Assembly (NCBI GenBank): GCA_045602525.1
Contig: JAZSBS010000076.1
Span: forward strand, 1-44,618
Source of the DNA: Acutalibacteraceae bacterium
GTDB lineage: Bacteria > Bacillota > Clostridia > Oscillospirales > Acutalibacteraceae
Direction: 5' to 3'
DNA: 44,618 nt
Part shown: positions 1,670-37,276 of the stretch, piece by piece
Position numbering within the stretch: the stretch's first letter is position 1
Layout: the number at the start of each line of letters is the position of its first letter
The notes under the pieces: generated by a model
What the model saw: only the letters and a program-made list of their open reading frames with translations
Told to the model about the DNA's origin: nothing
The model's database searches: none
Translations under genes and position numbers: made by a program

Positions 1670-1740
1670 CTTTTTTGTATGGTACAATATCCTTAACTTT
1701 GTGCAAGTGCTGACTCTTGTCAGCTGAAGGAATAGGTGCT

Positions 1741-8055: not shown

Positions 8056-8796
8056 ATGCTACAGCTTAAAAATATTTCTTTTTCGGCTGAAAACGAAGAT
8101 GGCGTAAAAGAAATTTTAAAAGATATTACAATGGATGTCGATAACGGTTTTCTTGCTATAACTGGGCCTAACGGCGGTGGTAAGTCTACACTTGCAAAAA
8201 TCATTGCAGGTATTATAAAACCTACAAGCGGTAAGATTTTGCTTGACGGTGAGGATATAACCGACCTTTCTATTACCGAACGGGCCAATAAAGGTATAAG
8301 CTTTGCTTTCCAACAGCCTGTACGCTTTAAAGGAATCACGGTTAATGACCTTATCCGACTTGCATCTGGTAAAGAGATAAGTATGTCAGAGGCTTGTGAT
8401 TATCTGTCACAGGTTGGTCTTTGCGCACGTGATTATATAAACCGCGAGGTTAACGCATCGCTTTCTGGCGGTGAGCTTAAAAGAATTGAGATTGCTACCG
8501 TTTTGGCACGCGGCACAAAGGTATCACTTTTTGACGAACCGGAGGCAGGAATCGATCTTTGGAGTTTTGGCAACCTCATAAATGTTTTTGAAAAAATGCG
8601 CGAAACGCTGGGCGGTTCTATTATTATAATTTCGCATCAGGAACGTATTCTCAACATTGCGGATAAGGTTGCAGTGCTGTCTGCAGGCGAACTTAAGTCT
8701 TACGGTAACCGTGATGATATATTGCCCGAATTGTTAGGAAAAACAAATGCTGTTTGCCCTGTGCTTACTAATAATATGAAGGGGGCACAGTCGTGA
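8056..8796 (+). CDS. sufC: SufC-like Fe-S cluster assembly ABC ATPase
   Basis: Start moved to ATG 8056, behind a GGAGGA RBS. It has Walker A GPNGGGKST, signature LSGGELKR, and Walker B LFDEPEAG. The stop overlaps the next gene as GTGA. Confidence 0.7.
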   Translation: MLQLKNISFSAENEDGVKEILKDITMDVDNGFLAITGPNGGGKSTLAKIIAGIIKPTSGKILLDGEDITDLSITERANKGISFAFQQPVRFKGITVNDLIRLASGKEISMSEACDYLSQVGLCARDYINREVNASLSGGELKRIEIATVLARGTKVSLFDEPEAGIDLWSFGNLINVFEKMRETLGGSIIIISHQERILNIADKVAVLSAGELKSYGNRDDILPELLGKTNAVCPVLTNNMKGAQS

Positions 8797-9710
8797 ATAA
8801 TATCGAAAAAGATTTACTTAAAATAATTGCTGATATGGATGGAATACCAGAGGGCGCTTTCAATATCCGCGCTAATGGTACACTGGCCCAACGCCACACA
8901 ACATCTAATGTCGATATTCGCAACAAAACGGACAAGGATGGTATTGACATAATCATCCGTCCGGGCACCAAGGGTGAGACTGTGCACATACCGGTCATTA
9001 TAAGCGACAGCGGTGTAAACGATTTGGTGTATAATGACTTTATAATCGGTGACGATGCCGATGTTGTTATTATGGCAGGCTGCGGTATTCATAACTGTGG
9101 AGACAATGAGTCGCGTCACGACGGTATACACACATTTTTTGTTGGCAAAAACGCAAGAGTTAAGTATATTGAGCGTCATTATGGCGAAGGTGATGGCGCG
9201 GGCGGCAAAAATATGAACCCCACTACCGTTGTCAATGTTGCTGAGGGCGGTTATATGGAAATGGAAACCAGTCAGATAAAGGGTATTGATAATACCTGTC
9301 GTGTAACTCGCGCGACGTTGGCTGATGATGCTACACTTATTATTCGAGAAAAGCTTATGACACACGGTATACAGCGCGCCGAGACCGACTTTTCGGTTGA
9401 TATGAATGGCGAAAATTCAAGCGCAAATGTTGTATCGCGTTCGGTAGCCTGCGACAACTCGGTGCAGATTTTCCGCTCTAATATTAACGGAAACAACAAA
9501 TGTACAGGTCATACAGAGTGCGATGCTATTATTATGGATAGCGCGCGTGTCAGCGCTATACCTGAAATCAGCGCAAACCATATTGATGCATCTCTTATTC
9601 ACGAAGCGGCAATCGGCAAAATCGCGGGCGAACAGCTTATAAAGCTTATGACCTTAGGTCTTACTGAGCAACAAGCTGAAGAGGAAATTGTAAATGGCTT
9701 CTTAAAATAA
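8793..9710 (+). CDS. SufB/SufD-family Fe-S assembly protein
   Basis: It is translationally coupled to the sufC-like gene. The beta-helix-like repeat composition and the C-terminal LIHEAAIGKI...EQLIKLMTLGLTEQQAEEEIVNGF motif are typical of SufBD. Confidence 0.65.
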   Translation: MNNIEKDLLKIIADMDGIPEGAFNIRANGTLAQRHTTSNVDIRNKTDKDGIDIIIRPGTKGETVHIPVIISDSGVNDLVYNDFIIGDDADVVIMAGCGIHNCGDNESRHDGIHTFFVGKNARVKYIERHYGEGDGAGGKNMNPTTVVNVAEGGYMEMETSQIKGIDNTCRVTRATLADDATLIIREKLMTHGIQRAETDFSVDMNGENSSANVVSRSVACDNSVQIFRSNINGNNKCTGHTECDAIIMDSARVSAIPEISANHIDASLIHEAAIGKIAGEQLIKLMTLGLTEQQAEEEIVNGFLK

Positions 9711-17149: not shown

Positions 17150-17417
17150 TATTAAAAACCTACGATTAAGAATAGTAGCCTGAATAAAAACTTTCAGAGA
17201 GCGGCTGTTGGTGGAAATGCCGTAGCGGAAATTCTGGCGAATGGACTTATGAGGGCGACCGAAAGGGCTTTTGCCTTAGTAGCAGTCGACGGGAGCACCC
17301 GTTACAGTGCGGCTTATATGTTGGTATAAGTGTGAGGCGGATGATTTTTTCATCAATCAGGGTGGCACCGCAGGATTTTATCTTGTCCCTTAATTTATTT
17401 AGGGATGGGATTTTTTT
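17150..17417 (+). promoter_or_regulatory. T-box leader (tRNA-Trp specifier) with terminator/antiterminator
   Basis: Stem I carries AGAGAG and GGTGGAAA elements. UGG is followed by A at 17242-17245, with a second UGG at 17235. The conserved T-box sequence AATCAGGGTGGCACCGCAGG lies at 17355-17374. The terminator pairs atcttgtccct with agggatgggat and ends in T7 (17381-17417). Confidence 0.85.
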
Positions 17418-17495: not shown

Positions 17496-18716
17496 ATGAA
17501 ACTAAATAATGTAGATTTTGATACCTATTTTAACAACTACCCCGACAAAAACGGATATTTTGGAAAATACGGCGGCGTTTATATTGAGGATAAATTAAAA
17601 GACGCTATGGCAGAAATTACCGAGGCATATTATTCAATTTGTCAGTCGCGTAAATTTATTGCCGAGCTTCGTAGAATCAGAAAAGAATTTCAGGGCAGAC
17701 CTACACCCGTGTCACATCTTGAAAGACTTTCTGATGCGTTAGGTGGTAAGGTTCAGCTTTATGCAAAGCGTGAAGACCTTAACCATTCGGGTGCGCCCAA
17801 GTTAAATCACTGTATGGGTGAAGCGCTTTTGGCAAAATATATGGGCAAGAAAAAAATCATTGCCGAAACAGGCGCCGGTCAGCACGGTGTAGCGCTTGCT
17901 ACTGCGGCTGCTTACTTTGGACTAGAATGCGATATCTATATGGGTAGCGTTGATATTAAGAAACAGGCTCCAAACGTTGCGCGTATGAAAATTTTGGGCG
18001 CAAACGTTATTGAGGTAACGCATGGTCTTGCAACACTTAAAGAGGCGGTTGACGCGGCGTTTGACGCTTATAGCAAGGAATATAAGGACTGTATTTACTG
18101 CATAGGTTCGGTATTGGGTCCTCATCCGTTTCCAATGATGGTGCGCGATTTCCAAAGCGTTGTTGGTATTGAGGCGCGTGAGCAGTTTATTGAGATGACA
18201 GGACATTTGCCATCGGCAATCGTAGCATGTGTTGGCGGTGGTTCTAATGCGGCGGGTCTTTTCTCGGGCTTTTTGAATGACCCTGTTGATATTTACGGTA
18301 TTGAACCACTTGGTCGCGGACCAAAGCTTGGTGACCACGCGGCAAGTCTTAAATATGGTACAGAGGGTATTATGCATGGCTTTAACAGTATAATGCTTAA
18401 AGACGAAAATGGCGAGCCGGCTCCTGTTTACTCGGTAGCGAGCGGTCTTGACTATCCATCATCTGGTCCCGAACACGCATTTTTACAGGATATTGGTCGT
18501 GTTAAGTATGATGTTATTGACGATGAAGAAACGATTGACGCGTTCTTTAAGCTTGCTCGACTTGAGGGTATAATCCCCGCAATTGAGTCTTCACACGCTG
18601 TGGCTTACGGTATGAAGCTTGCAAAAACAATGGATCACGGCTCTGTGCTTATTAACCTTTCGGGTCGTGGAGATAAGGATATGGACTATGTAATTGAAAA
18701 TTACGGGATTCGCTAA
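17496..18716 (+). CDS. trpB: Tryptophan synthase beta chain (stand-alone, no trpA in window)
   Basis: Motifs [17 protein letters not shown] (PLP lysine context), [15 protein letters not shown] and SGRGDKD are present. It lies directly downstream of the Trp T-box. Confidence 0.85.
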
Positions 18717-18889: not shown

Positions 18890-18928
18890 GCAAAACTGCG
18901 ATGATGTATCATCGCAGTTTTGCTTTTT
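18890..18928 (+). terminator. Strong intrinsic terminator, 172 nt downstream of the trpB stop
   Basis: A 15-bp perfect stem gcaaaactgcgatga/tcatcgcagttttgc, loop tgta, then TTTTT. Confidence 0.85.
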
Positions 18929-19046: not shown

Positions 19047-19268
19047 ATGTATTATAATGAAATTATTCAATTTGAACGTGAAACACAAAACAAAACTCAA
19101 AAACAAGTTGCAGAATATTTAGGAATAAAGCAACAACAATATGCAAGATATGAAAAAGGTATAAATTTAATGCCTATAACTCATTTAAAGAAAGTTTGTG
19201 AATATTTGGAATTATCAGCGGATTACGTTTTAGGTTTACCCAAAAATTTACCATATCCTAAAAGATAA
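19047..19268 (+). CDS. XRE-family helix-turn-helix transcriptional regulator (73 aa)
   Basis: The Cro/CI-type HTH reads KTQKQVAEYLGIKQQQYARYEKG. It has a GGTGA RBS and its own terminator. Confidence 0.8.
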   Translation: MYYNEIIQFERETQNKTQKQVAEYLGIKQQQYARYEKGINLMPITHLKKVCEYLELSADYVLGLPKNLPYPKR

Positions 19269-19275
19269 ACTACTA

Positions 19276-19310
19276 GGCTTTGCTTTTGATATAAAGCAAA
19301 GTCTTTATTA
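19276..19310 (+). terminator. Intrinsic terminator after the XRE gene
   Basis: ctttgcttt (19278-19286) pairs with aaagcaaag (19293-19301), followed by a T-rich tract. Confidence 0.6.
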
Positions 19311-19353: not shown

Positions 19354-19382
19354 TTGAATATTAAAGTTTTATTTGGTATAAT
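19354..19382 (+). promoter_or_regulatory. Strong sigma-A-like promoter of the yfhO operon
   Basis: TTGAAT (19354-19359), a 17-nt spacer, then TGgTATAAT (19374-19382). Confidence 0.7.
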
Positions 19383-19419
19383 AACTTTTAATGATATCTA
19401 AACGATAGAGGTGAGCAAA

Positions 19420-22038
19420 ATGACCTTTTCACAAAGCAAGCAAACATTACTTAAACCCCAAAAAGAAAAGCGACTGTTTACATTTGTTGTAGCGCTTTTT
19501 ACGGCGGCTTGTCTTTTTGTGCCTTATATGGTAATGAGTGAAGGTTATTTCACCTTTTATGGAGATTTTAATGTTCAGCAAATACCTTTTTACCAGATGT
19601 GCCATGCGGCTATAAAAGAGGGTAATATAAGCTGGAACTGGCTTACCGACCTTGGTTCTGATTTTGTAGGCTCGTATGCTTTCTATCTGCTTGGTAGTCC
19701 TTTTTTCTGGGTAACATTAATCTTTCCAAACAGTTTTGTACCGTATTTAATGGGACCGCTGCTTGTTTTAAAATTCGCTTTTGCGGCGCTTACGGGGTAT
19801 TTATATATCCGCCGTTTTACAAAGACAGCGTATGCCGCAAGTCTTGGCGGTTTGCTTTACGCTTTTTCCGGATTTTCGATATACAACATATTCTTTAACC
19901 ATTTTCACGAGGCGATAATCGTCTTTCCGCTATTATTGCTTGGCGTGGAATTACTGCTTACCGAAAACCGCCGTGGTGTTTTTGCGTTGGCAGTTGCTTT
20001 CTGCGCAATTGTGAACTACTTTTTCTTTTTTGGAATGGTAGTATTTTGCGTAATATATTTCTTTGTACGACTGGGCTCCAACGCAATAAAGGTGAAATTC
20101 TCTCGCTTTTTGGTGTTCTCATTTGAGGCGGTTTTGGGATTGGCTCTTTCGGCGGCATTGCTTGTACCTGCGCTTAATGCTATTATGGGAAATGAACGTA
20201 TTTCTAGCATTCTTATGGGTTGGAATGGAATTACTTACGGCAAAGAACAGATATATCTTAATGTTATACAATGCTTCTTCTTCCCACCTGACCTGCCTGC
20301 GCGTCCTGTTTTCTTTCCTGAGGCTAATGTAAAATGGTCCTCCTTGGGCGGTTGGCTGCCCGTGTTTAGTATGACAGGATTTTTCACTTGGTTTAAGCTG
20401 CGTGAAAAAAGCTGGTTAAAGAGGGTCTTGGCAATTTGTGTGCTTTGCGCATTGGTGCCAATACTTAACAGCGCATTTTACGCTTTTAATACGTCATACT
20501 ATGCGCGCTGGTTTTATATGCCTGTGCTACTTATTGCTCTTGCTACTGCAATGCTTACCGAAGATAAGTCGGTCGATTTTTCCTGTGGTTTACGTTGGAC
20601 TACGGCAATCACACTTGCATTTGTGTTGGTTATCGGATTTTTCCCACAAACCGTTAAAAGCGGGGAAGAAGAAAAAATTATATTTGGTCTTTACACCCAA
20701 AGCGAAAACGGCATGTATATTGCGCGTTTCTGGATAACCAGCCTGATAGCCCTTGTATGCTTGCCTATGCAGAAGCTGCTGTTTGAAACGCTTAAAACCG
20801 ACCGCACAAAATTTTATAAGGGAGCTATTGCCTGCGTTTGCATAATATCTATCCTTTACGGCAATGTGTTTATAGCGCTTGGACGCACACATTCTTATGA
20901 AATTGAGGATGTTATGATTGACTCGCTTATTGAAGGCGAGGTATATTTTGATGATGAAAGCGAATTCAGAATAGATGTTTACGATGGTGTTGACAATACG
21001 GGTATGTATTTAGGATATCCTACTATAAATGCATTTCATTCGGTTGTGTCACCGTCTATTATGGAATTTTATGATTATATTGGAATCGAACGCTCGGTTG
21101 CAAGCCGACCCGATACCGATTATCCTGCCATACGCTCACTGTTGTCTGTAAAGTATTTGATTAACCGTACCGATGGTGACAGCTTTGTGGACGAAGACGG
21201 TAAAACTCTGATGCCCGATTATGAATATATAAAAACCAGCGGCAATTATTATGTCTACGAAAACCAAAATTACGTACCGTACGGTTTCTCGTATGATTAT
21301 TATATGAGTTATGATTTTTGCGACGAATACAGCGAGTCTACTCGCTCACGTCTTATGCTGAAAGCCGTACTGCTTACCGATGAACAGATTGAAAAATATA
21401 GCGAATATATGTCTGACATAGAGGATTTGCAGTACGCAGGTCTATATAATGAGGGCACTATCACCCTAAGTCTTACCGATACGGCAATGGCTGCTGATGC
21501 CGCCGCATTGAAAGAAACTGCGGCCGATAGCTTCAGTGTTGATAATAACGGCTTTACCGCATCTGTTACTCGCGATAGGAAATCACTCGTGTTTTTCTCT
21601 GTTCCCTTTGATGAGGGTTGGACTGCGACGGTCAACGGTAAGGCGGTAGAGGTTGAAAAGGTAAATGCAGGCTTTATGGCTGTGGCAGTGGATGCGGGTG
21701 TATCGGAAATACGTTTTAATTATTGCAACACAGGACTCGGTCTTGGTACGACGATAACACTTGGTGCTGTGCTGATATTTATAGTTTATATACTTGCAAG
21801 CCTGATATATATTAAAAATCATCCTGCAGAAACTGAATATCCCGAGGGCGAAAGGTTGCTTGAAGCGTGGCGTGCCGACGATATAGCCGAGTCGGTGCTT
21901 GATGCTATTGATGACATACCGATTAAAAGCATTTTAGACCGTCTTGACGACCAACCTACAACACAGAACAACGAGATTATAGGCGGCTTTAAGATAGACG
22001 AAAACGCATTCAGTGAGGAGAATGAAAATGAAGCTTAA
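19420..22038 (+). CDS. YfhO-family polytopic membrane protein (GT-C-like glycosyltransferase family)
   Basis: Start at ATG 19420, behind an AGAGGTGA RBS. The N-terminus FYGDFNVQQIPFY, many TM helices, a large extracytoplasmic domain and one terminal TM fit the YfhO architecture. It also has an acidic C-terminal tail of about 85 aa. Confidence 0.75.
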   Translation: MTFSQSKQTLLKPQKEKRLFTFVVALFTAACLFVPYMVMSEGYFTFYGDFNVQQIPFYQMCHAAIKEGNISWNWLTDLGSDFVGSYAFYLLGSPFFWVTLIFPNSFVPYLMGPLLVLKFAFAALTGYLYIRRFTKTAYAASLGGLLYAFSGFSIYNIFFNHFHEAIIVFPLLLLGVELLLTENRRGVFALAVAFCAIVNYFFFFGMVVFCVIYFFVRLGSNAIKVKFSRFLVFSFEAVLGLALSAALLVPALNAIMGNERISSILMGWNGITYGKEQIYLNVIQCFFFPPDLPARPVFFPEANVKWSSLGGWLPVFSMTGFFTWFKLREKSWLKRVLAICVLCALVPILNSAFYAFNTSYYARWFYMPVLLIALATAMLTEDKSVDFSCGLRWTTAITLAFVLVIGFFPQTVKSGEEEKIIFGLYTQSENGMYIARFWITSLIALVCLPMQKLLFETLKTDRTKFYKGAIACVCIISILYGNVFIALGRTHSYEIEDVMIDSLIEGEVYFDDESEFRIDVYDGVDNTGMYLGYPTINAFHSVVSPSIMEFYDYIGIERSVASRPDTDYPAIRSLLSVKYLINRTDGDSFVDEDGKTLMPDYEYIKTSGNYYVYENQNYVPYGFSYDYYMSYDFCDEYSESTRSRLMLKAVLLTDEQIEKYSEYMSDIEDLQYAGLYNEGTITLSLTDTAMAADAAALKETAADSFSVDNNGFTASVTRDRKSLVFFSVPFDEGWTATVNGKAVEVEKVNAGFMAVAVDAGVSEIRFNYCNTGLGLGTTITLGAVLIFIVYILASLIYIKNHPAETEYPEGERLLEAWRADDIAESVLDAIDDIPIKSILDRLDDQPTTQNNEIIGGFKIDENAFSEENENEA

Positions 22039-22288
22039 ATGTAATTTTGTAATCAATAATGTGGCAGGTGAAACGGTTGCCGTGACGGTTGGAAACAGTG
22101 ATTTCAATGGCTATATAAAGCTTAATGAAACAGGCACGTTTATCTTTAAAATGCTTAAAAATGATACCACCCGCGAGGATATTATAAAAGCTTTGATGAA
22201 AGAGTACCCTGATGCCACCCACGAGGCTGCTGTCGAGAGTGTTGACGAATTGCTACAAAAACTTGATAAGGCAGAGCTTTTGGTATGA
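22028..22288 (+). CDS. PqqD-family small protein (RiPP-recognition-element-like fold)
   Basis: MKLKCNFVINNVAGETVAV...FNGYIKLNETGTFIFKML...EDIIKALMKEY...VDELLQKLDKAELL follows the typical clostridial PqqD pattern. GAGGAG lies 8 nt upstream of ATG 22028. It overlaps the yfhO stop. Confidence 0.7.
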   Translation: MKLKCNFVINNVAGETVAVTVGNSDFNGYIKLNETGTFIFKMLKNDTTREDIIKALMKEYPDATHEAAVESVDELLQKLDKAELLV

Positions 22289-22743
22289 AAACCTACGATA
22301 TAAATGCGGTGGAGGAACAGCTTAAAACACAACACAGCGCTGCATATCTTACCAGTGGAGCCAGTATGCGACCACTGCTGCGCACTCATAAGGACATTGT
22401 AGTTATAGTAAAAGCGAAGCATCCGTTAAGTGTAGGTGATGTTCCGCTTTACAAAAAACACGGCGTAGAAAAACTGATACTGCACCGCATAATCGGTGTA
22501 AAAGAGGATGGAACATATATTACGCGCGGCGATAATACCTATCACAAAGAATATATACCTCAAGGTGATGTTGTAGGTGTAATGACCGCCATTTATAGAG
22601 GTGGCAAGTATATTGATTGCGCGACTTCCAAGAAATATAAAATTTATATAAAGTTAAATAAATTTTTCTATCCTTTAAGATGGTTCTGGAAAACCAAAAT
22701 CCGCGCAACTCTGGGTCGCATAAAAAGAAAAATTATATCATAG
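22285..22743 (+). CDS. S24/S26-family peptidase, SipW/ER-type (Ser/His) signature, no TM segment
   Basis: SGASMRPLL is the nucleophile box. LHRIIGV replaces the usual KR(V/L)IG box. RGDN is also present. It forms an ATGA overlap with the pqqD-like stop. Confidence 0.65.
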   Translation: MKTYDINAVEEQLKTQHSAAYLTSGASMRPLLRTHKDIVVIVKAKHPLSVGDVPLYKKHGVEKLILHRIIGVKEDGTYITRGDNTYHKEYIPQGDVVGVMTAIYRGGKYIDCATSKKYKIYIKLNKFFYPLRWFWKTKIRATLGRIKRKIIS

Positions 22744-22755
22744 GCGGGGGTTGTT

Positions 22756-23766
22756 TTGAAAAAAATAAAACTACTCTTAACAGTGCTTTGTTGCGTATTG
22801 TGTTTATCCGCATGTGAAAGCAATATGGGTATAAAGACAAGCAGTAGTCAAAGTGATAGTGTGTCTGTACCACAAATTTCGTTGCCTGAAAATGAAAATA
22901 GTAGCGAGGCGGAAATTACAGTACAAACAAAACCTATACAGGCGGTGATGCCACAGACTGTAGACATCGGTAAAACAATAGCGGTAACAGGAAAACTTGA
23001 AAGCGCTGAATATTCAGGTAAAATTACCGAGCTACAAAGTATATTAAACGATTATTCGCGCAATATTTCGCTTTCGATTTATTCGGTAGACGGTTCAAAA
23101 GGCCTTTATTATAACACCAAGGCGGAGATTTTCGGAGCTTGCACCGTAAAGGCGGCATACACGCTTTATGCTTGTAAACAAATGGAAAATGGGAACGGCA
23201 ATTTAAGCGTGTCTCTTACATATGATGAAAAGCATTATGAACCCGGCACAGGCGATATGCAGTATTCACCCTTTGGTACGGTGTTTACTATGGAAACTGC
23301 GCTGCATAAAAGTATGTCGATAAGCGATAATGTTGGTTATTTGATGGCGGTAGACCATTTTGGACGCGACGGATACAATAACTTTATAAGTGAAATGGGT
23401 TGCGACTCTCTTCAGATAAAACCAACCGTGTGGAGTTTGCGAACAAAGTCGCAGGACCTTGTGAAGTTGTGGTGTGAAATTTACAATTATTTTCAGACTA
23501 ACACCGAGTATTCAAGGTTTTTGTATAATAGTTGCACTAACACGGCGGGCAATTATGCCACAGCCGCCTTAAGCGGTGTGGACTATTCCCACAAGCAAGG
23601 TCATAACAGCACGGGCGACTGGTTATCCCTTAGCGACGCAGGCATTGTGTGGAAAGGCGATACGCCATATATTATCGCAATTCTTACCGATGCCCCGGGT
23701 CCGTCAGGCTACGATGCAGGTGTGTTTGCACAGATAATCCAAATAGTACATAATGACTTATTTTAA
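22756..23766 (+). CDS. Lipoprotein with class-A beta-lactamase / serine-hydrolase-like domain (SxxK position reads CTVK)
   Basis: TTG start behind a GGGGG RBS. The lipobox is LCLSAC. SISDN matches the SDN loop and HKQG matches the KxG box. FGACTVKAAY aligns with the STFK region of class A enzymes. Confidence 0.55.
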   Translation: MKKIKLLLTVLCCVLCLSACESNMGIKTSSSQSDSVSVPQISLPENENSSEAEITVQTKPIQAVMPQTVDIGKTIAVTGKLESAEYSGKITELQSILNDYSRNISLSIYSVDGSKGLYYNTKAEIFGACTVKAAYTLYACKQMENGNGNLSVSLTYDEKHYEPGTGDMQYSPFGTVFTMETALHKSMSISDNVGYLMAVDHFGRDGYNNFISEMGCDSLQIKPTVWSLRTKSQDLVKLWCEIYNYFQTNTEYSRFLYNSCTNTAGNYATAALSGVDYSHKQGHNSTGDWLSLSDAGIVWKGDTPYIIAILTDAPGPSGYDAGVFAQIIQIVHNDLF

Positions 23767-23770
23767 AAGA

Positions 23771-23798
23771 AAAATCCTTGCCGCTCGGCAAGGATTTT
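23771..23798. terminator. Bidirectional terminator
   Basis: Hairpin aaaatccttgccg/cggcaaggatttt. Confidence 0.8.
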
Positions 23799-25083: not shown

Positions 25084-25812
25084 TTAATTTTTTGTTTTTT
25101 TCAGTTTGTTAATAATAAAAATCGGTGTGTACATTATAACAAGCACAATTGGCAAGAGTATCGGAAATGCCCATTGGTGAGAGCCAAAAATATTTTCAAA
25201 GAGCACCAAAAAGCTTATGTCGTCAGTCCGCATTAAAAACATAAAATTTGTATCGCACAGGAAATTAACACCCAGCACCACAACGCCCATACAAACAAGT
25301 AAAATCAGGCATTTTGGTGCCATTTTGATGTCGGGTTTTATATCGCCACCTACCGTTAGCATAATTGGATAAATTGCTAAAAGAATATGTATGCTAAAGC
25401 TGTGTATATGCATAAAGTTACCGGGGGGTAATGCCGTCCACGACGGAGTAAGAAGTGCTATAACACCTGCAGGAATACATATCGCATATAAAAAGTTATC
25501 AATAACCTTGGGTTGTTTAAAAATGTGGAACGCCACCAAAAACACGTTTATACTGCACAAATGAAGTGGCAGATAACTGTGCTGATATCTGTCACCAATA
25601 AAAAGGAATACCCATTTCCATGCTTCGTCAAGCAATATAATACTTGCCACAACTATGCGCATAATATTGCGCGTCTTTGGTGACAACTTACGATAAATAA
25701 TTGATACTGAAATCGCCAGAATAATAAAAGCCGCAAGCCATATTAAATGAGTTTTGCTAAACAGACTAAAACCCATACCTTCTTTAATGGTTTCAACGGT
25801 ATCTAAAAACAT
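25084..25812 (-). CDS. YwaF/TIGR02206-like integral membrane protein, paralog 1
   Basis: Start moved to ATG 25812, behind a GAGGTGGG RBS. It aligns end to end with paralog 2. The listed upstream extension overlaps the pncA-like gene. Confidence 0.6.
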   Translation of the reverse strand: MFLDTVETIKEGMGFSLFSKTHLIWLAAFIILAISVSIIYRKLSPKTRNIMRIVVASIILLDEAWKWVFLFIGDRYQHSYLPLHLCSINVFLVAFHIFKQPKVIDNFLYAICIPAGVIALLTPSWTALPPGNFMHIHSFSIHILLAIYPIMLTVGGDIKPDIKMAPKCLILLVCMGVVVLGVNFLCDTNFMFLMRTDDISFLVLFENIFGSHQWAFPILLPIVLVIMYTPIFIINKLKKTKN

Positions 25813-25926
25813 ACATCCCACCTCAAAAATAATATTAACACAAAAAGCGCCAAAAGTCACTAAAAAAATCGTGGTTGCTATGTGTTTTTTTAAGGTGTAT
25901 AATATTTTAAAAAAGGAAGTGTTTTT

Positions 25927-26451
25927 ATGAAAAAGATTTTGGTTGTAGTAGATATTCAAAACGATTTTGTTGACGGTGCGCTTGGCACACCCGAGGCTGT
26001 TGCTATAATTGATAATGCTGCCGAGAAAATCAAAAATTTTGACGGCGATATTTTTGTAACATATGATACGCATTATGAAAATTATATGGGTACTTTAGAG
26101 GGCAAAAAATTGCCTGTGCCACACTGTATAAAGGGGACAGACGGTTGGCAGTTGAATAGCAAAATCGCCGATGCGTTAAATAATAAAAAATATAAAACCG
26201 TAGAAAAATTAACCTTTGGCTCGGTTGAATTACCCGAGCTTGTTAAAGAGGTAATTGGCGATGATACCGCCGAGATTACGCTTATAGGTCTGTGCACCGA
26301 TATTTGCGTGGTATCAAACGCGTTGCTACTAAAAGCAAATTTATTGGATTGCGAAATTTTTATAGATGCCTCTTGCTGTGCCGGTGTAACGCCCGATACC
26401 CACAATGCCGCGCTTGAAACTATGAAATGTTGTCAGATAAATGTGATATAA
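25927..26451 (+). CDS. pncA: Isochorismatase-family hydrolase, nicotinamidase-like
   Basis: Motifs VVDIQNDF, PVPHCIKGTDGWQL and LIGLCTDICV (catalytic Cys) are present. Confidence 0.65.
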   Translation: MKKILVVVDIQNDFVDGALGTPEAVAIIDNAAEKIKNFDGDIFVTYDTHYENYMGTLEGKKLPVPHCIKGTDGWQLNSKIADALNNKKYKTVEKLTFGSVELPELVKEVIGDDTAEITLIGLCTDICVVSNALLLKANLLDCEIFIDASCCAGVTPDTHNAALETMKCCQINVI

Positions 26452-26487
26452 AATTACTCGGTGCTGTTTTCAGCACCGAGTAATTTT
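26451..26487. terminator. Bidirectional terminator
   Basis: Hairpin attactcggtgctg/cagcaccgagtaat with flanking A and T runs. Confidence 0.8.
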
Positions 26488-27238
26488 ATGTATTGACTAA
26501 TTCTTTTTGTTTTGCTTTTACCTTTTTGACTTTATTTACAATAAGTATCGGCAGTGCCATTATAAGCATAATTATTGGCAAAAGTATGGGGAACGCCCAT
26601 TGATGAGCGCCGAATATATCTTCAAAAATTTGTAAAAATCCAATGCCCGCGGTATTCATCAAGAACATAAAGTTCTGATCGAAAGCAATGTTAAGTATAA
26701 GCGCAGGTATAGCAAAACCTATCAGCAGTAATATACATTTTGGCATTGCTTTAAGGTCGGGTTTTAAATCACCGCTTGCCACCAAAACAAATGGATACAG
26801 CACTAAAAACATATGTATCACAAAACTGTGTATATGAAAATAATTTAGGCAAGGCATATTGGTCCAGTCGGGAGTAAGCAGTGCCAACATAGCGCCGGGA
26901 ATACCTATGTAATACAAAAAATTTTCAACTGCTTTAGTACGTTTAAATATACAAAACGTTATAAGCAATACGTTTATACCGCAAAGATGAAACGGCATAT
27001 GACCTATACCAAAGTCGCCAATTGCCGCCGCGACACAGTTTTTAATGGTTTCCATAGCAATAACCGTTACAGCAATCGCTATGCGCATAACATTGCGTTG
27101 CTTTGTGCCAAGCTTTCGGTAAACTATAACGCTCACCGCACAAAGCAAAATAAAAAGTCCAAGCCACAAAAGATGTGTAGTATCATAAAGCTTAAAACCA
27201 ACGCCCTCAGGCATTTGAGTCTCTGATAAGAAAAACAT
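26486..27238 (-). CDS. YwaF/TIGR02206-like integral membrane protein, paralog 2
   Basis: Start moved to ATG 27238, behind the same GAGGTGGG RBS context. About half of positions are identical to paralog 1 by eye, for example HLCGINV, FHIHSF and GAHQWAFPILLPI. Confidence 0.6.
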   Translation of the reverse strand: MFFLSETQMPEGVGFKLYDTTHLLWLGLFILLCAVSVIVYRKLGTKQRNVMRIAIAVTVIAMETIKNCVAAAIGDFGIGHMPFHLCGINVLLITFCIFKRTKAVENFLYYIGIPGAMLALLTPDWTNMPCLNYFHIHSFVIHMFLVLYPFVLVASGDLKPDLKAMPKCILLLIGFAIPALILNIAFDQNFMFLMNTAGIGFLQIFEDIFGAHQWAFPILLPIIMLIMALPILIVNKVKKVKAKQKELVNT

Positions 27239-27326
27239 AATTCCCACCTCAAAGGCATAATAACACAGATATGGCAAAATGTCACTAAAAAGTTTAAAAA
27301 TCGTCATTTTTTGCGCTATGGCGTTG

Positions 27327-30010: not shown

Positions 30011-30835
30011 ATGAAAATTAAATTTTTAGGTACTGCGGCGGCCGAGGCATTTCCGGCTATGTTTTGCGATTGCGAAAATTGCAAAAAGGCAAGAGCTCTT
30101 GGCGGTAAAAATATTCGCACACGCTCACAAGCTTTGATAGATAACGATTTGTTTATAGATTATTCGAGCGATACTTATTATCACGTGATAACGCATAATA
30201 TAAATCTCTTAGATATTAAAAGTGTTCTTATTACCCATATACACGATGACCATTTTTATCCAAATGATTTAAACTGGATGGCAAGGGGTTTTTCAATGCC
30301 TCCTGAGGATTGGCACGGTATTACGGTTCACGGTAGCGTGGATATTGAAGTACTGCTTTCTGAAATAGTGGCAAATTCGCGCGAATATTTAAAATGTGAA
30401 TCACATCCTGTGTTTAAACCTTTTAAAGTGGACGATTATACCGTAACCGCACTTAAAGCAACACATGGTACTGAAAATCCGTATATATACATAATTGCCA
30501 AGGATAATAAAACACTTTTCTATGTGCAAGATACAGGCTTACTGCCCGAAGAAACATGGGAATATTTAAGGAACAGTAATCTCTATTTTGATGCGGTTGT
30601 AATGGACTGTACAGCAGGCACTACAGATATTAGTTATTCGTCCCATATGGGCTTGCCACGCAACATTAAAACACGCGGTCAAATGTTTGAAGTGGGTTTG
30701 GTTGACAGCAATACCAAATTTGTACTTAATCATTTTTCACACAATGGTGGAGATGCTGTGTATGATGAATTTGAACCTATTGCAAGGAAAAACGGTTTTA
30801 TTACTTCTTATGAAGGTTTAGAAATAGAAATATAG
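30011..30835 (+). CDS. MBL-fold metallo-hydrolase (PhnP-like)
   Basis: It has the HIHDDH metal-binding motif and an N-terminal CDCENC cluster. Confidence 0.7.
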   Translation: MKIKFLGTAAAEAFPAMFCDCENCKKARALGGKNIRTRSQALIDNDLFIDYSSDTYYHVITHNINLLDIKSVLITHIHDDHFYPNDLNWMARGFSMPPEDWHGITVHGSVDIEVLLSEIVANSREYLKCESHPVFKPFKVDDYTVTALKATHGTENPYIYIIAKDNKTLFYVQDTGLLPEETWEYLRNSNLYFDAVVMDCTAGTTDISYSSHMGLPRNIKTRGQMFEVGLVDSNTKFVLNHFSHNGGDAVYDEFEPIARKNGFITSYEGLEIEI

Positions 30836-30846
30836 GAGAATGAAAT

Positions 30847-31188
30847 ATGTCTGATTGTCTATTTTGTAAAATAATTGCAGGGGATATACCCTCTACCAAG
30901 GTTTATGAAGACGAGTGGGTTTATGCTTTTTTAGATATTGACCCACAAGCGCCTTTTCACGCAGTAATAGTGCCAAAGATACACGTTGCATCTGCGGCTG
31001 AAATAACTGCAGAAAATAGTCATTATATTTCAAAAATTTTTGAGGCTGTGGCTAAAATCGCAAAACAAGAAAATCTTGAAAAAGGTTTTCGTGTTGTAAA
31101 CAATTGCGGTGAAGATGGCGGTCAAACAGTAGGTCACATACATTTTCATCTACTTGCACGCCGCTATTTACAATGGCCTCCAGGTTGA
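30847..31188 (+). CDS. HIT-family (histidine triad) nucleotide-binding protein
   Basis: CLFCKII at the N-terminus and the HIHFHLL triad. Confidence 0.85.
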   Translation: MSDCLFCKIIAGDIPSTKVYEDEWVYAFLDIDPQAPFHAVIVPKIHVASAAEITAENSHYISKIFEAVAKIAKQENLEKGFRVVNNCGEDGGQTVGHIHFHLLARRYLQWPPG

Positions 31189-31207
31189 TGGTAAAGGAGA
31201 AATAAAT

Positions 31208-31747
31208 ATGTCTGAATTCTATACTATGAAAATTGCAGGACTTGAGCGTAAGCTTGAAAAATTTCCTGTAAGCGACAAGCTTGATATTGCCGCATTTATA
31301 ATCTTTGGTGACGTAGAGCTTACTATTGCCGGTTGCGCAGAGCTGCTTAAAAAGGTTCCTGAGTTTGATGTTGTGCTTACTCCAGAAGCTAAGTCTATTC
31401 CTATGGCCTATGAAATGGCTCGTCAGAGTGGCAAGCCATACATAATTGCTCGTAAGGGTGTAAAGGTTTATATGCGTAATCCGCTTGAGGTTTCAGTGCG
31501 TTCTATTACAACACAAAACGAACAGCATTTGTACTTAGGCGAAAACGAGGTAGAGCAGATAAAGGGCAAGCGAGTGCTTATTATCGATGACGTTATCAGC
31601 ACAGGCGAATCACTTGCCGCTGTGCGCGAACTTTTAAAACAGGCAGACGCCATCGAGGCCGCCGCTTGCGCATTCTTAGCCGAAGGCGATGCCGCTGACC
31701 GTGATGATATAATATTTTTGGAAAAACTTCCTTTGTTTTTTAAATAA
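31208..31747 (+). CDS. Phosphoribosyltransferase family protein (type I PRTase)
   Basis: Start at ATG 31208, behind AAAGGAG. The PRPP loop reads VLIIDDVISTGESL. Confidence 0.7.
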   Translation: MSEFYTMKIAGLERKLEKFPVSDKLDIAAFIIFGDVELTIAGCAELLKKVPEFDVVLTPEAKSIPMAYEMARQSGKPYIIARKGVKVYMRNPLEVSVRSITTQNEQHLYLGENEVEQIKGKRVLIIDDVISTGESLAAVRELLKQADAIEAAACAFLAEGDAADRDDIIFLEKLPLFFK

Positions 31748-31758
31748 GAGGTGTGAAT

Positions 31759-32325
31759 ATGGACACACTAAACCAATTTGAAATAGGTATTCTTGATTTT
31801 ATTCGTGAAACCTTTTCTTGCAAATTTTTGGATTACTTCTTTGTAGGCATTACAAGTCTTTCAAATAAGGGCATTTTTTGGATAATTTTGGCAGTGATTT
31901 TACTTTGCTTTAAAAAGACAAGAAAAACAGGTATTTGCTTGGGTGTTGTGCTTCTTATCGGCGAGATTGTCGGCAACCAAATTCTTAAAAAGATTTTTGA
32001 AAGACCTCGCCCATATATTGTAAATCCTGATATAACACTTGTTATTGATAAACTTTCTTCATTTTCTTTTCCGTCGGGACATTCACGTTGTGCGGTTGAG
32101 TGTGCTGTAGCCATTTTTTATAACAACAAAAAATGGGGAATTGCGGCAATCGTGGTGGCAGCGCTGACCTGTCTTTCAAGACTTTATCTTTATGTGCATT
32201 ACCCGACTGATGTTTTAGCGGGTGCGGCACTTGGCGTAATTGACGGTTTGCTTGCAATATTTATTGTTAAAAAGGTTGGCGAATACACAAACAACCGAAA
32301 ATCTAAATTGAGACAGGAGAAATAA
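31759..32325 (+). CDS. PAP2-family phosphatase (undecaprenyl-diphosphate/phosphatidate phosphatase-like)
   Basis: Motifs KxxxxRPRP (KKIFERPRP), PSGHS, and a third-motif-like VHYPTDV are present. It has several TM segments. Confidence 0.8.
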   Translation: MDTLNQFEIGILDFIRETFSCKFLDYFFVGITSLSNKGIFWIILAVILLCFKKTRKTGICLGVVLLIGEIVGNQILKKIFERPRPYIVNPDITLVIDKLSSFSFPSGHSRCAVECAVAIFYNNKKWGIAAIVVAALTCLSRLYLYVHYPTDVLAGAALGVIDGLLAIFIVKKVGEYTNNRKSKLRQEK

Positions 32326-32326
32326 T

Positions 32327-33415
32327 ATGTTAAAGAGAATGCTAAAAGAACGCGATTTATTACCTATTTTAAAAATGAATGACGGTAGCCCCGTTACAGT
32401 AGAAAATTGGCGTGAGCGCCGAGCTGAAATGCTTGACGATTTGCAAAAATATTCTTATGGCTACACTCCCGATTGTTTAGGTGAGGGTACGGGCGAAGTG
32501 ATTTTTGAAGATAAAATTGCCTATGCCGGTAAGGTAACCGAACAGCATATAAACATTACCTTTAATACGCCAAACGGACCGTTTACATTTTATAGTGAAT
32601 TATATATTCCAAATGCTGTAGAAAAACCACCTGTATTTTTAAATCACGCATTCCGTCGAGTACCCGATAGATATATACCGGTAGAGGAAATTACCGATCA
32701 GGGTTTTGCGTTGTTTGTTATGGTTTACAAAGAGGTTGTAAACGATAACCATTACGGCGATTTTTCTGACGGTATGGGAAAAATGTTTGGAGTAGAAAAT
32801 CCACGTGAGGATAAAACACAGTGGGGCAAAATTGGTATGTGGGCGTATGCTGCATCACGCGCGCTTGATTACCTGTTAACGCGCAGTGATATTGATGCCG
32901 AGCATACTGCGGTTATCGGTCACTCACGTCTTGGCAAAACAGCGCTTTGGACCGCCGCACAGGATGAACGTTTTTGGTGTGCAATATCAAACGATTCGGG
33001 TTATGGCGGCGCCGCCACCTCAAAGCACGGCACAGGCGAAAAGGTAGACGACTTTTTAAAGTGGGGCAGTTGGGATTGGTTTTGCGAAAACTTTAAGGAT
33101 TATCAGGGTAAAGAGGACGATAAGCCTTACGACCAAGCACATCTTATAGCATCTATTGCGCCGCGTCTTGTTTGTGTAGGTTCGGCGGTAGAAGATTGGG
33201 CCGCTGACCCCGTGTCAGAGTTTTTAACCTCACTTCACGCAAGTACGGCTTGGGAGATTTTGGGCGAAAAGGGACTTATTACTCCCGATAAAATGCCCGA
33301 AGTAAACGACCACTTAACCGAAGGTAACATAGGCTACCACCTACGCGCGCACAGACATTTCTTCTCGCGAGAGGATTGGAATTATTACATTAAGTTTTTA
33401 AAATCAAAATTATAA
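32327..33415 (+). CDS. Alpha/beta hydrolase, glucuronoyl-esterase (CE15)-like
   Basis: The GHSRLGKTALW nucleophile elbow resembles the CE15 GCSRxGK motif. There is no signal peptide. Confidence 0.45.
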   Translation: MLKRMLKERDLLPILKMNDGSPVTVENWRERRAEMLDDLQKYSYGYTPDCLGEGTGEVIFEDKIAYAGKVTEQHINITFNTPNGPFTFYSELYIPNAVEKPPVFLNHAFRRVPDRYIPVEEITDQGFALFVMVYKEVVNDNHYGDFSDGMGKMFGVENPREDKTQWGKIGMWAYAASRALDYLLTRSDIDAEHTAVIGHSRLGKTALWTAAQDERFWCAISNDSGYGGAATSKHGTGEKVDDFLKWGSWDWFCENFKDYQGKEDDKPYDQAHLIASIAPRLVCVGSAVEDWAADPVSEFLTSLHASTAWEILGEKGLITPDKMPEVNDHLTEGNIGYHLRAHRHFFSREDWNYYIKFLKSKL

Positions 33416-33453
33416 AAACACAGTGGATGGCTATTTTCCATCCACTGTGTTTT
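33416..33453. terminator. Bidirectional terminator
   Basis: Hairpin acacagtggatgg/ccatccactgtgt with flanking A and T runs. Confidence 0.8.
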
Positions 33454-33469
33454 ATACACATCATTGCTA

Positions 33470-34540
33470 TTATAATACTATCAGATTTTTATCACTTTTG
33501 GTAAGATTTATGCATCCGTTTTGGGTAACATATACCATATCCTCAATTCGAACGCCAAATTTGTTTTCAAGATAAATACCGGGTTCTACAGTGACAACAT
33601 TACCCACTTGCAGTGTGGCATTGTTGTTTGGACTAAGATTTGGCGCTTCGTGAACATCTATACCGACGCTGTGGCCAAGTGCATGGCCGAAGCAACCCTT
33701 GTATCCGGCATCATAAATTATATCGCGTGCGATTTTGTCAATATCACCGCAAACCGCATCCGCTTTAATGACATCTAGTGCGGCAAGCTGTGCCTTAAGT
33801 GTAGTGTCATAAACCTTTTTCTGTTCATCGCTGATACTGCCAACTGCTACAGTACGTGTCATATCACTGCAGTATCCACCCACAATGCCACCAAAATCCA
33901 TAGTAATGAAGTCGCCTTTTTCAATCTTTTTATCGGTAGGAACACCGTGAGGCAGGGAAGAGTTTTTGCCAGATACCACAATAAAATCAAACGATACACC
34001 CGAGGCGCCAAGGCTTCGCATAAAAAATTCCATATCAAGCATAACCTCGCGCTCGGTTCTGCCGACAGTAATACGAGGTAATATGTAATCAAAGGTTTGG
34101 TCGGTGAGGGCCTGCGCCTGTTTAATTAGCTGAAGCTCGCCCTCGCATTTTACGGCGCGCATTTCGTTGAGCTTTAAATCCAATATATTTTCTTTGGATA
34201 TTTTAATATCATTAAAAACATCGCATAAGTATTTATAATGTGAAAGGCTTACATTTGAGGCTTCGACAAACACAAGTTTAATTTTTTCTTGTTTTAAAAA
34301 CTCATAAATTCCCTTGTCGCCCTTGTCATACAGCACAACGTTACAACTGTCTACTGCGCCTTTTGCTTTTTCAAAGTATCTGAAATCTATAAAAAACACA
34401 GCCTTTTCACGCGTTACAACAACAGTACCTGCACTTGAATTAAAGCCTGTAAGATAAAATCGGTTGGCGCCGTTTGATATCAAAAATGCCTCGTTGTCTT
34501 TTAAGTTTTCTTGTAAACTTAAAATGCGATTTTTAATCAT
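33470..34540 (-). CDS. M24-family Xaa-Pro aminopeptidase/dipeptidase
   Basis: Motifs DFGGIVGGYCSDMTRT, GHALGHSVGIDVHE and VEPGIY are present. AGGTGA RBS. Confidence 0.8.
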   Translation of the reverse strand: MIKNRILSLQENLKDNEAFLISNGANRFYLTGFNSSAGTVVVTREKAVFFIDFRYFEKAKGAVDSCNVVLYDKGDKGIYEFLKQEKIKLVFVEASNVSLSHYKYLCDVFNDIKISKENILDLKLNEMRAVKCEGELQLIKQAQALTDQTFDYILPRITVGRTEREVMLDMEFFMRSLGASGVSFDFIVVSGKNSSLPHGVPTDKKIEKGDFITMDFGGIVGGYCSDMTRTVAVGSISDEQKKVYDTTLKAQLAALDVIKADAVCGDIDKIARDIIYDAGYKGCFGHALGHSVGIDVHEAPNLSPNNNATLQVGNVVTVEPGIYLENKFGVRIEDMVYVTQNGCINLTKSDKNLIVL

Positions 34541-34703
34541 TTTATCACCTTAAAAATTTATTTACATAAATCGGTCAAATTTTTAAAAATTTAAGAATAT
34601 AATAAAGATAACGGAAAGAAATTTCCACGCTATGTACATAAGCCGATGTCGCGGCAATAGTCGTGAATAAGCCGACGGTAAGTGTACGACTACGGCATAG
34701 TGT

Positions 34704-34748
34704 TAAAAAACCACTTGGGCGCAATTCAAATGGCGAATTGCGCCCAAG
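34704..34748 (-). terminator. Intrinsic terminator of the thrH-like gene
   Basis: Hairpin cttgggcgcaattc/gaattgcgcccaag at 34714-34748. The minus strand has a T6 run at 34705-34710. Confidence 0.8.
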
Positions 34749-34754
34749 ACCATT

Positions 34755-35354
34755 TTATAAAGCTTTTTTAATAGCGTCAAGCAGTTCGTCATACTCTTCA
34801 AAGGCTGGGAGCTCAGGGTAATCCGATTTTATCTTATCAGTAGATTTAAAAAGAAATCCTGCTTTGCTGGCGAGTATCATACCAAGGTCGTTAAAGCTGT
34901 CGCCTGCGGCTATTGTATCAAATCCGCAAGACTGAAGTGCGCGAACGGTGGTAAGTTTTGACTTTTCGCAGCGCATTTTATAGCCTGTAATCTCGCCATT
35001 TTCAGCAACCTCTAAGGTGTTGCAGAAAATGGTTGGCATTCCAAGCTTTCTCATAAGGGGAGCCGCAAACTGTTCAAAAGTATCACTTAAAATGATTACC
35101 TGCGTAACACTTCTTAGTTCATCTAAAAATTCTTTAGCACCATCCATAACGTCAATTTTTTCAATAACCGCCTGAATTTCTTTAAGACCTAAATTATGCT
35201 CTTTTAAAATATCAAGACGGTATTTCATAAGCTTGTCATAATCGGGCTCGTCACGGGTGGTACGCTTGAGTTCGGGTATACCAACCTCGTTTGCAAAGGC
35301 TATCCAGATTTCAGGGACTAATACGCCCTCCATATCCAAACATACTACATTCAT
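34755..35354 (-). CDS. thrH: HAD-family phosphoserine phosphatase / homoserine phosphotransferase, ThrH-like
   Basis: The N-terminus VCLDMEGVLVPEIWIAFA closely matches the ThrH N-terminus as I recall it. ILSDTF and AAGDSFND motifs are also present. Confidence 0.7.
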   Translation of the reverse strand: MNVVCLDMEGVLVPEIWIAFANEVGIPELKRTTRDEPDYDKLMKYRLDILKEHNLGLKEIQAVIEKIDVMDGAKEFLDELRSVTQVIILSDTFEQFAAPLMRKLGMPTIFCNTLEVAENGEITGYKMRCEKSKLTTVRALQSCGFDTIAAGDSFNDLGMILASKAGFLFKSTDKIKSDYPELPAFEEYDELLDAIKKAL

Positions 35355-35381
35355 TTTTATTACCTCGTTTGTGAAAGAATT

Positions 35382-36609: not shown

Positions 36610-36738
36610 GGCAAACACGCTCCTTTACTATATATATTATATTTTTTATATATAAAAGTCAACAGTTTGTGGTTTTATTTTTTGTCGCAATTCACATCTG
36701 GAATTGGTTTTTCGTAATATATATAGGGGTGAAAATTC

Positions 36739-37155: not shown

Positions 37156-37170
37156 TTAGGACTAATCTTT

Positions 37171-37210
37171 AAAAAAATCCGATTGTGCGTTTGTAACAAT
37201 CGGATTTTTA
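37171..37210 (+). terminator. Intrinsic terminator
   Basis: Hairpin atccgattgt/acaatcggat followed by TTTT. Confidence 0.75.
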
Positions 37211-37276
37211 ACATTTTGTATTATTTGCAAAAAAAGCGGCAAAGATATTATCAGTATTAAAAATGGAGGAATTTTT

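Follow-up and report, generated by a model that had tools for sequence, protein, structure and literature searches.

An operon joining yfhO to a PqqD-like recognition element and a membrane-less S26-like peptidase in an Acutalibacteraceae-like clade

The split leader peptidases of lasso peptide biosynthesis, such as TbiB1/TbiB2 and the PadeB1/B2 proteins of paeninodin, combine a small PqqD-fold protein, B1, with a transglutaminase-like cysteine protease, B2. B1 is a recognition element (RRE) of the type associated with peptides that are synthesized ribosomally and modified post-translationally (RiPPs). HprK-like proteins and NTP_transf_5 proteins also accompany the lasso clusters of Firmicutes (PMC7533575). 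The YfhO family encompasses enzymes of the cell envelope, which mediate the extracytoplasmic glycosylation of lipoteichoic and wall teichoic acids and of Ser/Thr-rich protein linkers (PMC5836110; PMC12041528); in streptococci these linkers belong to membrane-associated proteins (PMC12041528). We describe here an operon in which a yfhO gene is followed by a pqqD-like gene, a gene for a 152-aa S26-like peptidase and a gene for a beta-lactamase-fold lipoprotein, found in a 44,618-nucleotide stretch of DNA (hereafter the window) from an Acutalibacteraceae bacterium (assembly GCA_045602525.1, contig JAZSBS010000076.1). In the literature that was searched, we found no description of a PqqD plus S26 peptidase pair, nor of YfhO together with PqqD. 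The operon is real, but it is probably, though by no means certainly, a composite peculiar to one lineage, made up of three units that stand independently in other genomes, in which the PqqD-like protein and the peptidase form an RRE-guided leader-peptidase cassette orphaned behind yfhO.

The pair that lies behind yfhO belongs to a large and widespread family. Exhaustive searching with phmmer placed the peptidase among 2,921 representative clusters (50% identity) at E <= 1e-3, most of whose members are about 150 aa long. Two initial homologue searches returned only relatives of 68-99% identity from uncultured Clostridia metagenome-assembled genomes (MAGs), all fully syntenic and hence uninformative on co-conservation. 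One genome from each GTDB species was then scanned with a motif-selected alignment (A3; the broader alignments A1 and A2 held no sufficiently conserved stretch). This yielded 80 loci, in which open reading frames (ORFs) were called and searched with the window proteins, and the neighbours were clustered. These loci come from Ruminococcus, Acutalibacteraceae, Oscillospiraceae, Christensenellales, Lachnospiraceae, Eubacteriaceae and Sarcina. A PqqD ORF stands directly upstream of the peptidase gene in 69 of the 80, and in four proteins (P0264, P0270, P0309 and P0386) an N-terminal PqqD domain and an S26-like peptidase are naturally joined in one chain; on these grounds PqqD and peptidase are a conserved functional unit. 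The usual company of this unit is RiPP-like. The peptidase gene is accompanied by an HprK-like P-loop protein at 49 loci, by NTP_transf_5 (PF14907) at 18, by a radical S-adenosylmethionine (SAM)/SPASM RiPP maturase at 10 and by an ATP-binding cassette (ABC) exporter at 6, while YfhO is a neighbour at 10 and the beta-lactamase-like lipoprotein at 6. The conserved partners of the pair elsewhere are thus RiPP components, precursors included, and not YfhO. Of two other members of the peptidase family, P0336 ends in a GNAT acetyltransferase domain, and P0283 has a weak, sub-threshold N-terminal match to the lamin-tail domain (25.6 bits against a cut-off of 34.3).

Beside the pair, at 13 loci, lie 14 small precursor-like ORFs that share the leader (Y/F)xKPxMEVIxL...DV(I/V)xTS. 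Eight of these were recognized by inspection upstream of radical-SAM genes (L002, L009 at 8222-8371, L022, L024, L038, L043, L048 and L075), and a hidden Markov model (HMM) of the leader built from them retrieved six more at five loci (L023, L053 with two, L007, L077 at 8866-9006, and L041). The cores are Cys-rich where a radical-SAM gene is present and Cys-free and acidic where it is not, as at L077 and L041, which have an HprK-like gene, and at L007, where the pair stands isolated. At the junction between leader and core, position -1 is always Ser, and T, A, V, I, L or C occupies position -3. That pattern fits the -3/-1 rule of signal peptidases, and the peptidase may therefore cleave at the end of the leader. 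In three lineages (L002:4389-7007, L024:5609-7279 and L038:5155-7008), large secreted proteins with C-x-x-C-G repeats and no Pfam family are encoded directly upstream of the precursor/radical-SAM/PqqD/peptidase clusters. A lasso-type cluster was considered and rejected: the large recurrent neighbour c40 is a CapD-like polysaccharide enzyme, and c45, which matches no Pfam family, is a secreted protein with Cys repeats. No lasso-cyclase-like or B2-like conserved neighbour was found among the 80 loci; of their large recurrent neighbours, CapD was the one checked.

A neighbour-joining tree of the peptidases places all of the YfhO-linked loci, 12 including the window, in one clade of Acutalibacteraceae-like MAGs. 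This clade is nested among L002, L024 and L038, which harbor a precursor together with HprK-like, radical-SAM, PqqD and peptidase genes, L005, which has an HprK-like gene, and the isolated pairs of L007 and L027. The linkage of the pair to yfhO has a single evolutionary origin. A first-pass annotation of this DNA, made from the sequence alone, had proposed that the four genes form a module for recognizing and cleaving peptides, which regulates an envelope glycosylation or remodelling machine or supplies it with a substrate, and had made their co-conservation in related genomes a test of that idea. A survey of gene neighbourhoods found the arrangement confined to this one clade of 12 loci, and the lipoprotein gene missing from 4 of them (L042, L046, L049 and L081). 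Across the clade the shared synteny encompasses SecDF, AspAT, the TrpB-like gene, yfhO, pqqD, the peptidase gene, an acyltransferase gene, TMEM164-like genes, an isochorismatase gene and AlaRS, and in L049 and L055 a flavin adenine dinucleotide (FAD)-dependent oxidoreductase gene has been inserted downstream of the peptidase gene. The sister locus, L007, is an isolated pair among SpoIIGA, SigE, ECF component, MetK and GltD-like genes, with a leader-type ORF 1.7 kb away on the other strand. The possibility that the isolated pairs of L007 and L027 are hidden clusters was discarded, the neighbours at L007 being housekeeping genes.

Synonymous divergence (dS) from the window is saturated (>1) across the clade, and nonsynonymous divergence (dN) amounts to 0.13-0.22 in pqqD and 0.12-0.26 in the peptidase gene, similar to that of yfhO. 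From this contrast we conclude that both genes are functional, and the substitution rates indicate that they are under purifying selection. No precursor-like small ORF is present upstream of or within the operon, and a search for small ORFs with the leader HMM found none anywhere in the 44.6-kb window. Radical-SAM, YcaO, lanthipeptide, lasso and peptide-exporter genes are absent from the 36 window ORFs that were scanned against Pfam, several ORFs at 30011-44034 not having been scanned, and the other scanned ORFs are housekeeping or sugar-metabolism genes; HprK-like, NTP_transf_5 and radical-SAM matches are likewise absent from the window. The first-pass annotation had remarked on the lack of a RiPP maturase, exporter or precursor here, and its observation holds within the scope of these 36 ORFs and of the leader-HMM search.

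The pair could instead serve an unlinked RiPP cluster elsewhere in the genome, with a precursor and HprK-like or radical-SAM maturases, while its position behind yfhO merely supplies a promoter. We regard this as rather improbable, and it is in any case a sub-case of the preferred explanation more than a true alternative. Purifying selection on both genes and the invariance of the beta3 face of the RRE accord with it, as do the L007 pair, which already stands apart from any maturase with its candidate precursor on the other strand, and L002, in which only 8 kb separate a complete cluster from a yfhO orthologue. Against it, none of the 12 clade loci, at about 20 kb each, contains a precursor-like ORF.

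The assignment of the two proteins themselves rests on profiles, conserved residues and predicted folds. The PqqD-like protein matches PF05402 with 57.8 bits (E = 1.4e-15, cut-off 23.4), and in its AlphaFold2 model (predicted local distance difference test, pLDDT, 86.5) strands at 6-12, 15-21 and 29-32 precede helices at 34-43, 49-59 and 65-81, which is the beta3-alpha3 order of an RRE, a winged helix-turn-helix. The best PDB matches found with Foldseek are two lasso B1 proteins, TbiB1 with its leader (5v1u, TM-score 0.71) and 6jx3, followed by ThcOx, McbB and PqqD; the NCBIfam lasso_PqqD models give 39.4 and 31.9 bits, below their respective cut-offs of 70 and 80. The first-pass annotation's call of a PqqD-like RRE is upheld by the profile search and by the predicted fold. 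The beta3 residues are invariant within the YfhO-linked clade, and the protein is predicted to bind the leader of a ribosomal peptide.

The 152-aa protein matches no Pfam family at E <= 0.01 and scores 45.8 bits against NCBIfam TIGR02228, for which the cut-off is 51.85. In an alignment of 81 homologues, G25, S27, M28, P30, H67, R68, G82 and D83 are invariant and N84 is nearly so. The resulting motifs, S-M-x-P, H-R and G-D-N, align with those of human SEC11A and correspond to the Ser-His-Asp set of the signal peptidases of the endoplasmic reticulum (ER), the archaea and the SipW type. The AlphaFold2 model (pLDDT 95.3) consists of a beta-barrel and a basic, amphipathic C-terminal helix of 36 residues (116-151). 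It matches SpsB, SEC11A, SipA, UmuD' and LexA in Foldseek at a probability of 1.00 and TM-scores of 0.45-0.52, and the lambda repressor as well, all members of clan SF. Because of these invariant motifs and the predicted fold, we assign the protein to the S26B-like enzymes; hydropathy reveals no transmembrane segment, and it is a membrane-less endopeptidase, presumably cytoplasmic, and not a canonical signal peptidase. The earlier description of a membrane-less S26 peptidase is therefore sustained in its lack of a membrane segment, its Ser, His and Asp motifs and its S24/S26 fold, although no profile matches above cut-off.

It is conceivable, but very unlikely, that the 152-aa protein is a self-cleaving or regulatory S24-like protein in the style of LexA or UmuD, or an inactive scaffold, with the PqqD-like protein as a generic small partner. 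The lack of a Pfam match, the sub-cut-off NCBIfam scores and Foldseek E-values of only about 2e-3, with LexA, UmuD and lambda repressor among the matches, would be compatible with such a role. However, the Ser, His and Asp residues have the Sec11/SipW arrangement and not that of the S24 Ser-Lys dyad, and they are invariant in all 81 sequences; there is no DNA-binding domain; and an external peptide substrate is indicated by the fusions, by the obligate partnership with an RRE and by the neighbouring precursors with conserved leaders.

The coordinates of the operon and its signals are collected in Table 1.

Table 1. Features of the yfhO operon, with positions numbered along the window.
Feature	Position	Strand	Basis or remark
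Sigma-70-type promoter with extended -10, TTGAAT-17-TGgTATAAT	19354..19382	+	Promoter scan
yfhO, YfhO-family GT-C-type membrane glycosyltransferase (predicted), 872 aa from conserved ATG	19420..22038	+	PF09586
Acidic C-terminal tail of YfhO, 73 aa (coding positions)	21817..22035	+	Motifs YPEGxxLLxxW, KSILDxLDE, GGFKID
pqqD-like gene, 86-aa RRE	22028..22288	+	PF05402; translationally coupled to yfhO
152-aa membrane-less S26B-like (Sec11/SipW-type) Ser-His-Asp endopeptidase (predicted)	22285..22743	+	Invariant motifs, predicted fold
336-aa lipoprotein with class-A beta-lactamase/penicillin-binding-protein-like fold, facultative operon member	22756..23766	+	PF13354; aligned to PDB 3cjm
Bidirectional intrinsic terminator hairpin, common to the operon and a convergent acyltransferase gene	23771..23798		12-bp stem, T-runs on both strands

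The four genes are co-directional and lie between promoter and terminator; no Rfam element lies inside the operon. Both promoter hexamers and the TG are kept in all 11 aligned clade relatives of the window. The start codon of pqqD, ATG 22028, is found 11 nt inside yfhO (stop codon 22036-22038), 7 nt downstream of the ribosome-binding site (RBS) GAGGAG, and this overlap is kept in 10 of the 11 relatives. The yfhO stop falls within pqqD codons 3-4, and the PqqD N-termini of the outgroups likewise start MKLKY. The stop of pqqD and the start of the peptidase gene overlap as ATGA at 22285-22288, and a gap of 12 nt then separates the peptidase gene from the lipoprotein start codon, TTG 22756. The start of yfhO is ATG 19420, which is preceded by the RBS GAGGTG, both being conserved in the clade, in place of the GTG at 19411 given by the ORF lister. 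This check of the sequence confirms the promoter, terminator, gene order and tight junctions that had been described earlier.

The YfhO ORF matches PF09586 with 274.3 bits (E = 3e-81, cut-off 28.5), far above the threshold, and its earlier family assignment is secure; matches to the PgfM1 and PgfM2 profiles are partial and sub-threshold. Hydropathy indicates about 10-12 N-terminal hydrophobic segments (23-490), a hydrophilic domain of about 290 aa (491-780) and a last transmembrane segment at 781-799, in an orientation that is predicted to expose the large hydrophilic domain outside the cytoplasm. The tail that follows contains 21 D+E against 5 K+R and would be cytoplasmic, as judged from the K/R-rich flank after the last transmembrane segment. 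Neither a GT-A (CsbB/GtrB-type) gene nor a GtrA flippase gene adjoins yfhO, and a gene for a 252-aa GT2 protein lies 9 kb upstream of it, beside rml genes.

A search seeded with the YfhO of L002 returned a large set of orthologues that are 60-67% identical to the window protein and share the motifs of its tail. The six that were examined in context (L002 and L082-L086), all with a matching tail, stand without a neighbouring pqqD, peptidase or lipoprotein gene. Among L082-L086, four have no close co-directional gene downstream of yfhO, and in L086 an unrelated DUF2975 gene follows after 3 nt. In L002, a thiamine pyrophosphate (TPP) riboswitch (1551-1667 on the + strand, 55.6 bits, gathering score 54.3) is found directly 3' of the yfhO orthologue and before an unrelated gene, which indicates that yfhO ends its own transcription unit there. 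Since orthologues with the same tail lack the pair, the tail did not evolve for a PqqD/peptidase partner; it is a property of this YfhO subfamily, independent of the pair. The first-pass annotation was right to single out an unusual acidic tail after the last transmembrane segment, which is 73 aa long and not about 85, but its suggestion that the tail is a docking peptide for PqqD is weakened, both for this reason and for want of any likeness to the leader family.

The idea that the tail mimics a leader arose from a likeness by eye between YPEGE..LL..W..DDIAES in the tail and YEKP.MEV..L..DVITAS in the leaders. It was abandoned, since hhalign gives a probability of 0.6%, the leader HMM gives the tails scores no higher than those of 3,000 shuffles (p = 0.5-0.7), and members of the clade do not share the DDIAES portion. 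An apparent fusion of YfhO to PqqD at L051 (7137-10004) was likewise set aside: it is a 955-aa read-through ORF that results from a frameshift inside the yfhO tail in one MAG, probably an assembly indel or a recent mutation, and not a real fusion.

The lipoprotein scores 89.7 bits against PF13354 (cut-off 22) and 33.8 bits against the NCBIfam model bla_class_A, for which the cut-off is 200. Its lipobox is L17-S18-A19-C20, after which comes a variable S/T/E-rich linker of about 50 aa. In the window protein and six orthologues, C-T-V-K replaces the S-x-x-K motif of class A, SDN is intact and K-Q-G is found at the K-T/S-G position. The description of a beta-lactamase-like lipoprotein is thus supported by fold and lipobox but needs amending at the catalytic serine, which is a Cys here, and this variant could work through a thiol nucleophile or be non-catalytic.

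These observations can be drawn together as follows. The YfhO enzyme would, by family inference, move a sugar from an undecaprenyl-phosphate carrier to an extracytoplasmic acceptor, either teichoic acid or Ser/Thr-rich protein linkers. The PqqD-like RRE and the 152-aa protease would act as a two-part cytoplasmic leader peptidase, in which the RRE would bind the leader of a ribosomal peptide and the membrane-less Ser-His-Asp protease would then cut after a small residue. The division of labour would be that of lasso B1/B2, with an S26 fold in place of the transglutaminase-like cysteine protease. A single event, placed in the ancestor of one Acutalibacteraceae-like clade, would have attached the cassette to the 3' end of yfhO. 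The cassette would have come from clusters with precursor, HprK-like and radical-SAM genes, the neighbouring maturases and the precursor being lost after the joining, and it would have been retained since under purifying selection, with a present substrate that is not encoded in the window. The downstream gene would add an optional Cys-variant lipoprotein.

Several considerations weigh against this account of an orphaned cassette. The yfhO-pqqD-peptidase trio is never split in the 12 loci, at saturated dS and despite local changes in the flanking genes, and its overlap and single promoter are conserved across the clade; such operon membership usually reflects shared function. Since neither the window nor the 11 clade relatives, searched over their +/-10 kb flanks, hold a precursor-like ORF, a supposed orphan leader peptidase lacks its peptide. 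The 152-aa protein stays under the curated thresholds of every S24/S26 model tried, and peptide binding and cleavage are themselves predictions. Finally, polysaccharide genes adjoin the pair's relatives in about three independent lineages in addition to the YfhO clade.

This last connection is seen in a large Ruminococcus group, in which an HprK-like/PqqD/peptidase module, in some cases with NTP_transf_5, stands directly before Wzz-CpsD-GT2-GT4-Wzy or Wzx genes and is co-directional with them. Wzz is found about 1.2 kb after the peptidase gene in L010, L017, L025, L028, L036, L045, L060, L061 and L065, and Wzx at +31 to +167 from it in L015, L016, L019 and L054. CapD lies at +40 in L031 and L041, while in L020 and L070 a GT2 gene immediately precedes the module, at -30 and -382; these genes, too, are co-directional with it. 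The pattern is suggestive of a recurrent envelope connection of these modules.

Such observations bring back the integrated envelope module proposed at the outset, in which the RRE docks on the acidic YfhO tail and the peptidase trims or regulates, or in which YfhO glycosylates, outside the cell, a peptide already matured by the pair, the lipoprotein being an additional partner. The integrity of the trio under one promoter, with its 11-nt and ATGA overlaps, still speaks for it, the predicted topology would place the tail and the membrane-less pair in the same compartment, and the modules of Ruminococcus, L031/L041 and L020/L070 abut capsule-type loci or glycosyltransferases. YfhO-family enzymes can also glycosylate Ser/Thr-rich linkers (PMC12041528), and the lipoprotein has such a linker, but this idea requires neither an RRE nor a protease. 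Comparative genomics has weakened the proposal. The linkage to yfhO arose once; 68 of the 80 other loci have the pair without YfhO; the six orthologues keep the tail without an adjacent pair; the tail is no better than chance as a leader; and 4 of the 12 loci dispense with the lipoprotein. We therefore consider an integrated module unlikely. Less likely again is the specific case in which the trio is a functional unit, the RiPP-type pair having been recruited either to control a GT-C envelope glycosyltransferase or to feed it, through processing of the YfhO tail or through a peptide that is matured and then glycosylated outside. Nothing in this analysis gives evidence of a functional tie between the pair and YfhO or glycosylation, and a real link is improbable. 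If true, a co-opted trio would link RiPP machinery to the assembly of surface glycans, echoing the modules that precede capsule-type loci in Ruminococcus and other Clostridia.

Some further features of the window may be mentioned. Upstream of the operon, a T-box leader (17153-17393 on the + strand, 118 bits, gathering score 93) precedes the TrpB-like PALP gene (17496-18716). Between the latter and the yfhO promoter lies a small gene for an Xre-type helix-turn-helix protein (19047-19268), flanked by strong hairpins at 18890-18923 and 19275-19304; it is found in none of the 11 clade relatives and looks like a window-specific insertion. Tandem GH123-like paralogues occupy 1717-3198 and 3315-4796, and two paralogous membrane proteins of the TMEM164 family are encoded at 25084-26073 and 26486-27307, on either side of an isochorismatase-family gene.

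On the reading that we prefer, the cassette family itself is the more interesting result. The pair would represent a second architecture for RRE-guided leader removal, with a membrane-less Sec11/SipW-like serine protease where the lasso system uses the B2 cysteine protease. As a large family with a recognizable leader, it would provide a new anchor gene pair for RiPP genome mining, along with a cleavage rule, T/A-x-S, that can be tested. For envelope biology the operon is mainly a caution, as a tight and conserved association with yfhO arose only once and may be historical.

Four groups of known systems are comparable to parts of this locus. The YfhO protein resembles the GT-C enzymes YfhO, GtlB, PgfM1 and PgtC2 of Firmicutes in its strong PF09586 match and common architecture, whereas its subfamily has the conserved 73-aa acidic tail and no adjacent GT-A or GtrA flippase gene. 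The in silico systems of NCBIfam, namely the SynChlorMet cassette with ScmC and ScmD and the HPr-rel-A system, recall the pair's relatives beside HprK-like P-loop proteins and radical-SAM/SPASM enzymes. However, the weak matches to ScmC, HprK_rel_A/B, ScmD and PqqD_rel_X are all far below the curated cut-offs, and the window has no HprK-like gene. Signal peptidase I of the ER/archaeal type (Sec11 and SipW; MEROPS S26B) shares with the window protease its motifs and fold, and the leader ends of the pair's relatives are compatible with the -3/-1 rule. In contrast to Sec11 and SipW, the window protein has no transmembrane anchor, is expected to be cytoplasmic, carries a long basic amphipathic C-terminal helix, has an obligate RRE partner and scores below the cut-offs. 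The split lasso leader peptidases B1/B2 differ in that the window protease has an S24/S26 fold and a Ser-His-Asp set, and the pair lacks a conserved cyclase-like neighbour, a lasso_PqqD score above cut-off and a precursor in the window. In other respects the pair mirrors them: the gene for a small, discrete PqqD-fold RRE lies directly upstream of the protease gene, the two being fused in some cases; leader-bound TbiB1 comes closest in structure to the window RRE; and HprK-like proteins and NTP_transf_5 are found alongside the wider family. The cassette would accordingly belong to a kind already known, that of the bipartite, RRE-dependent leader peptidases.

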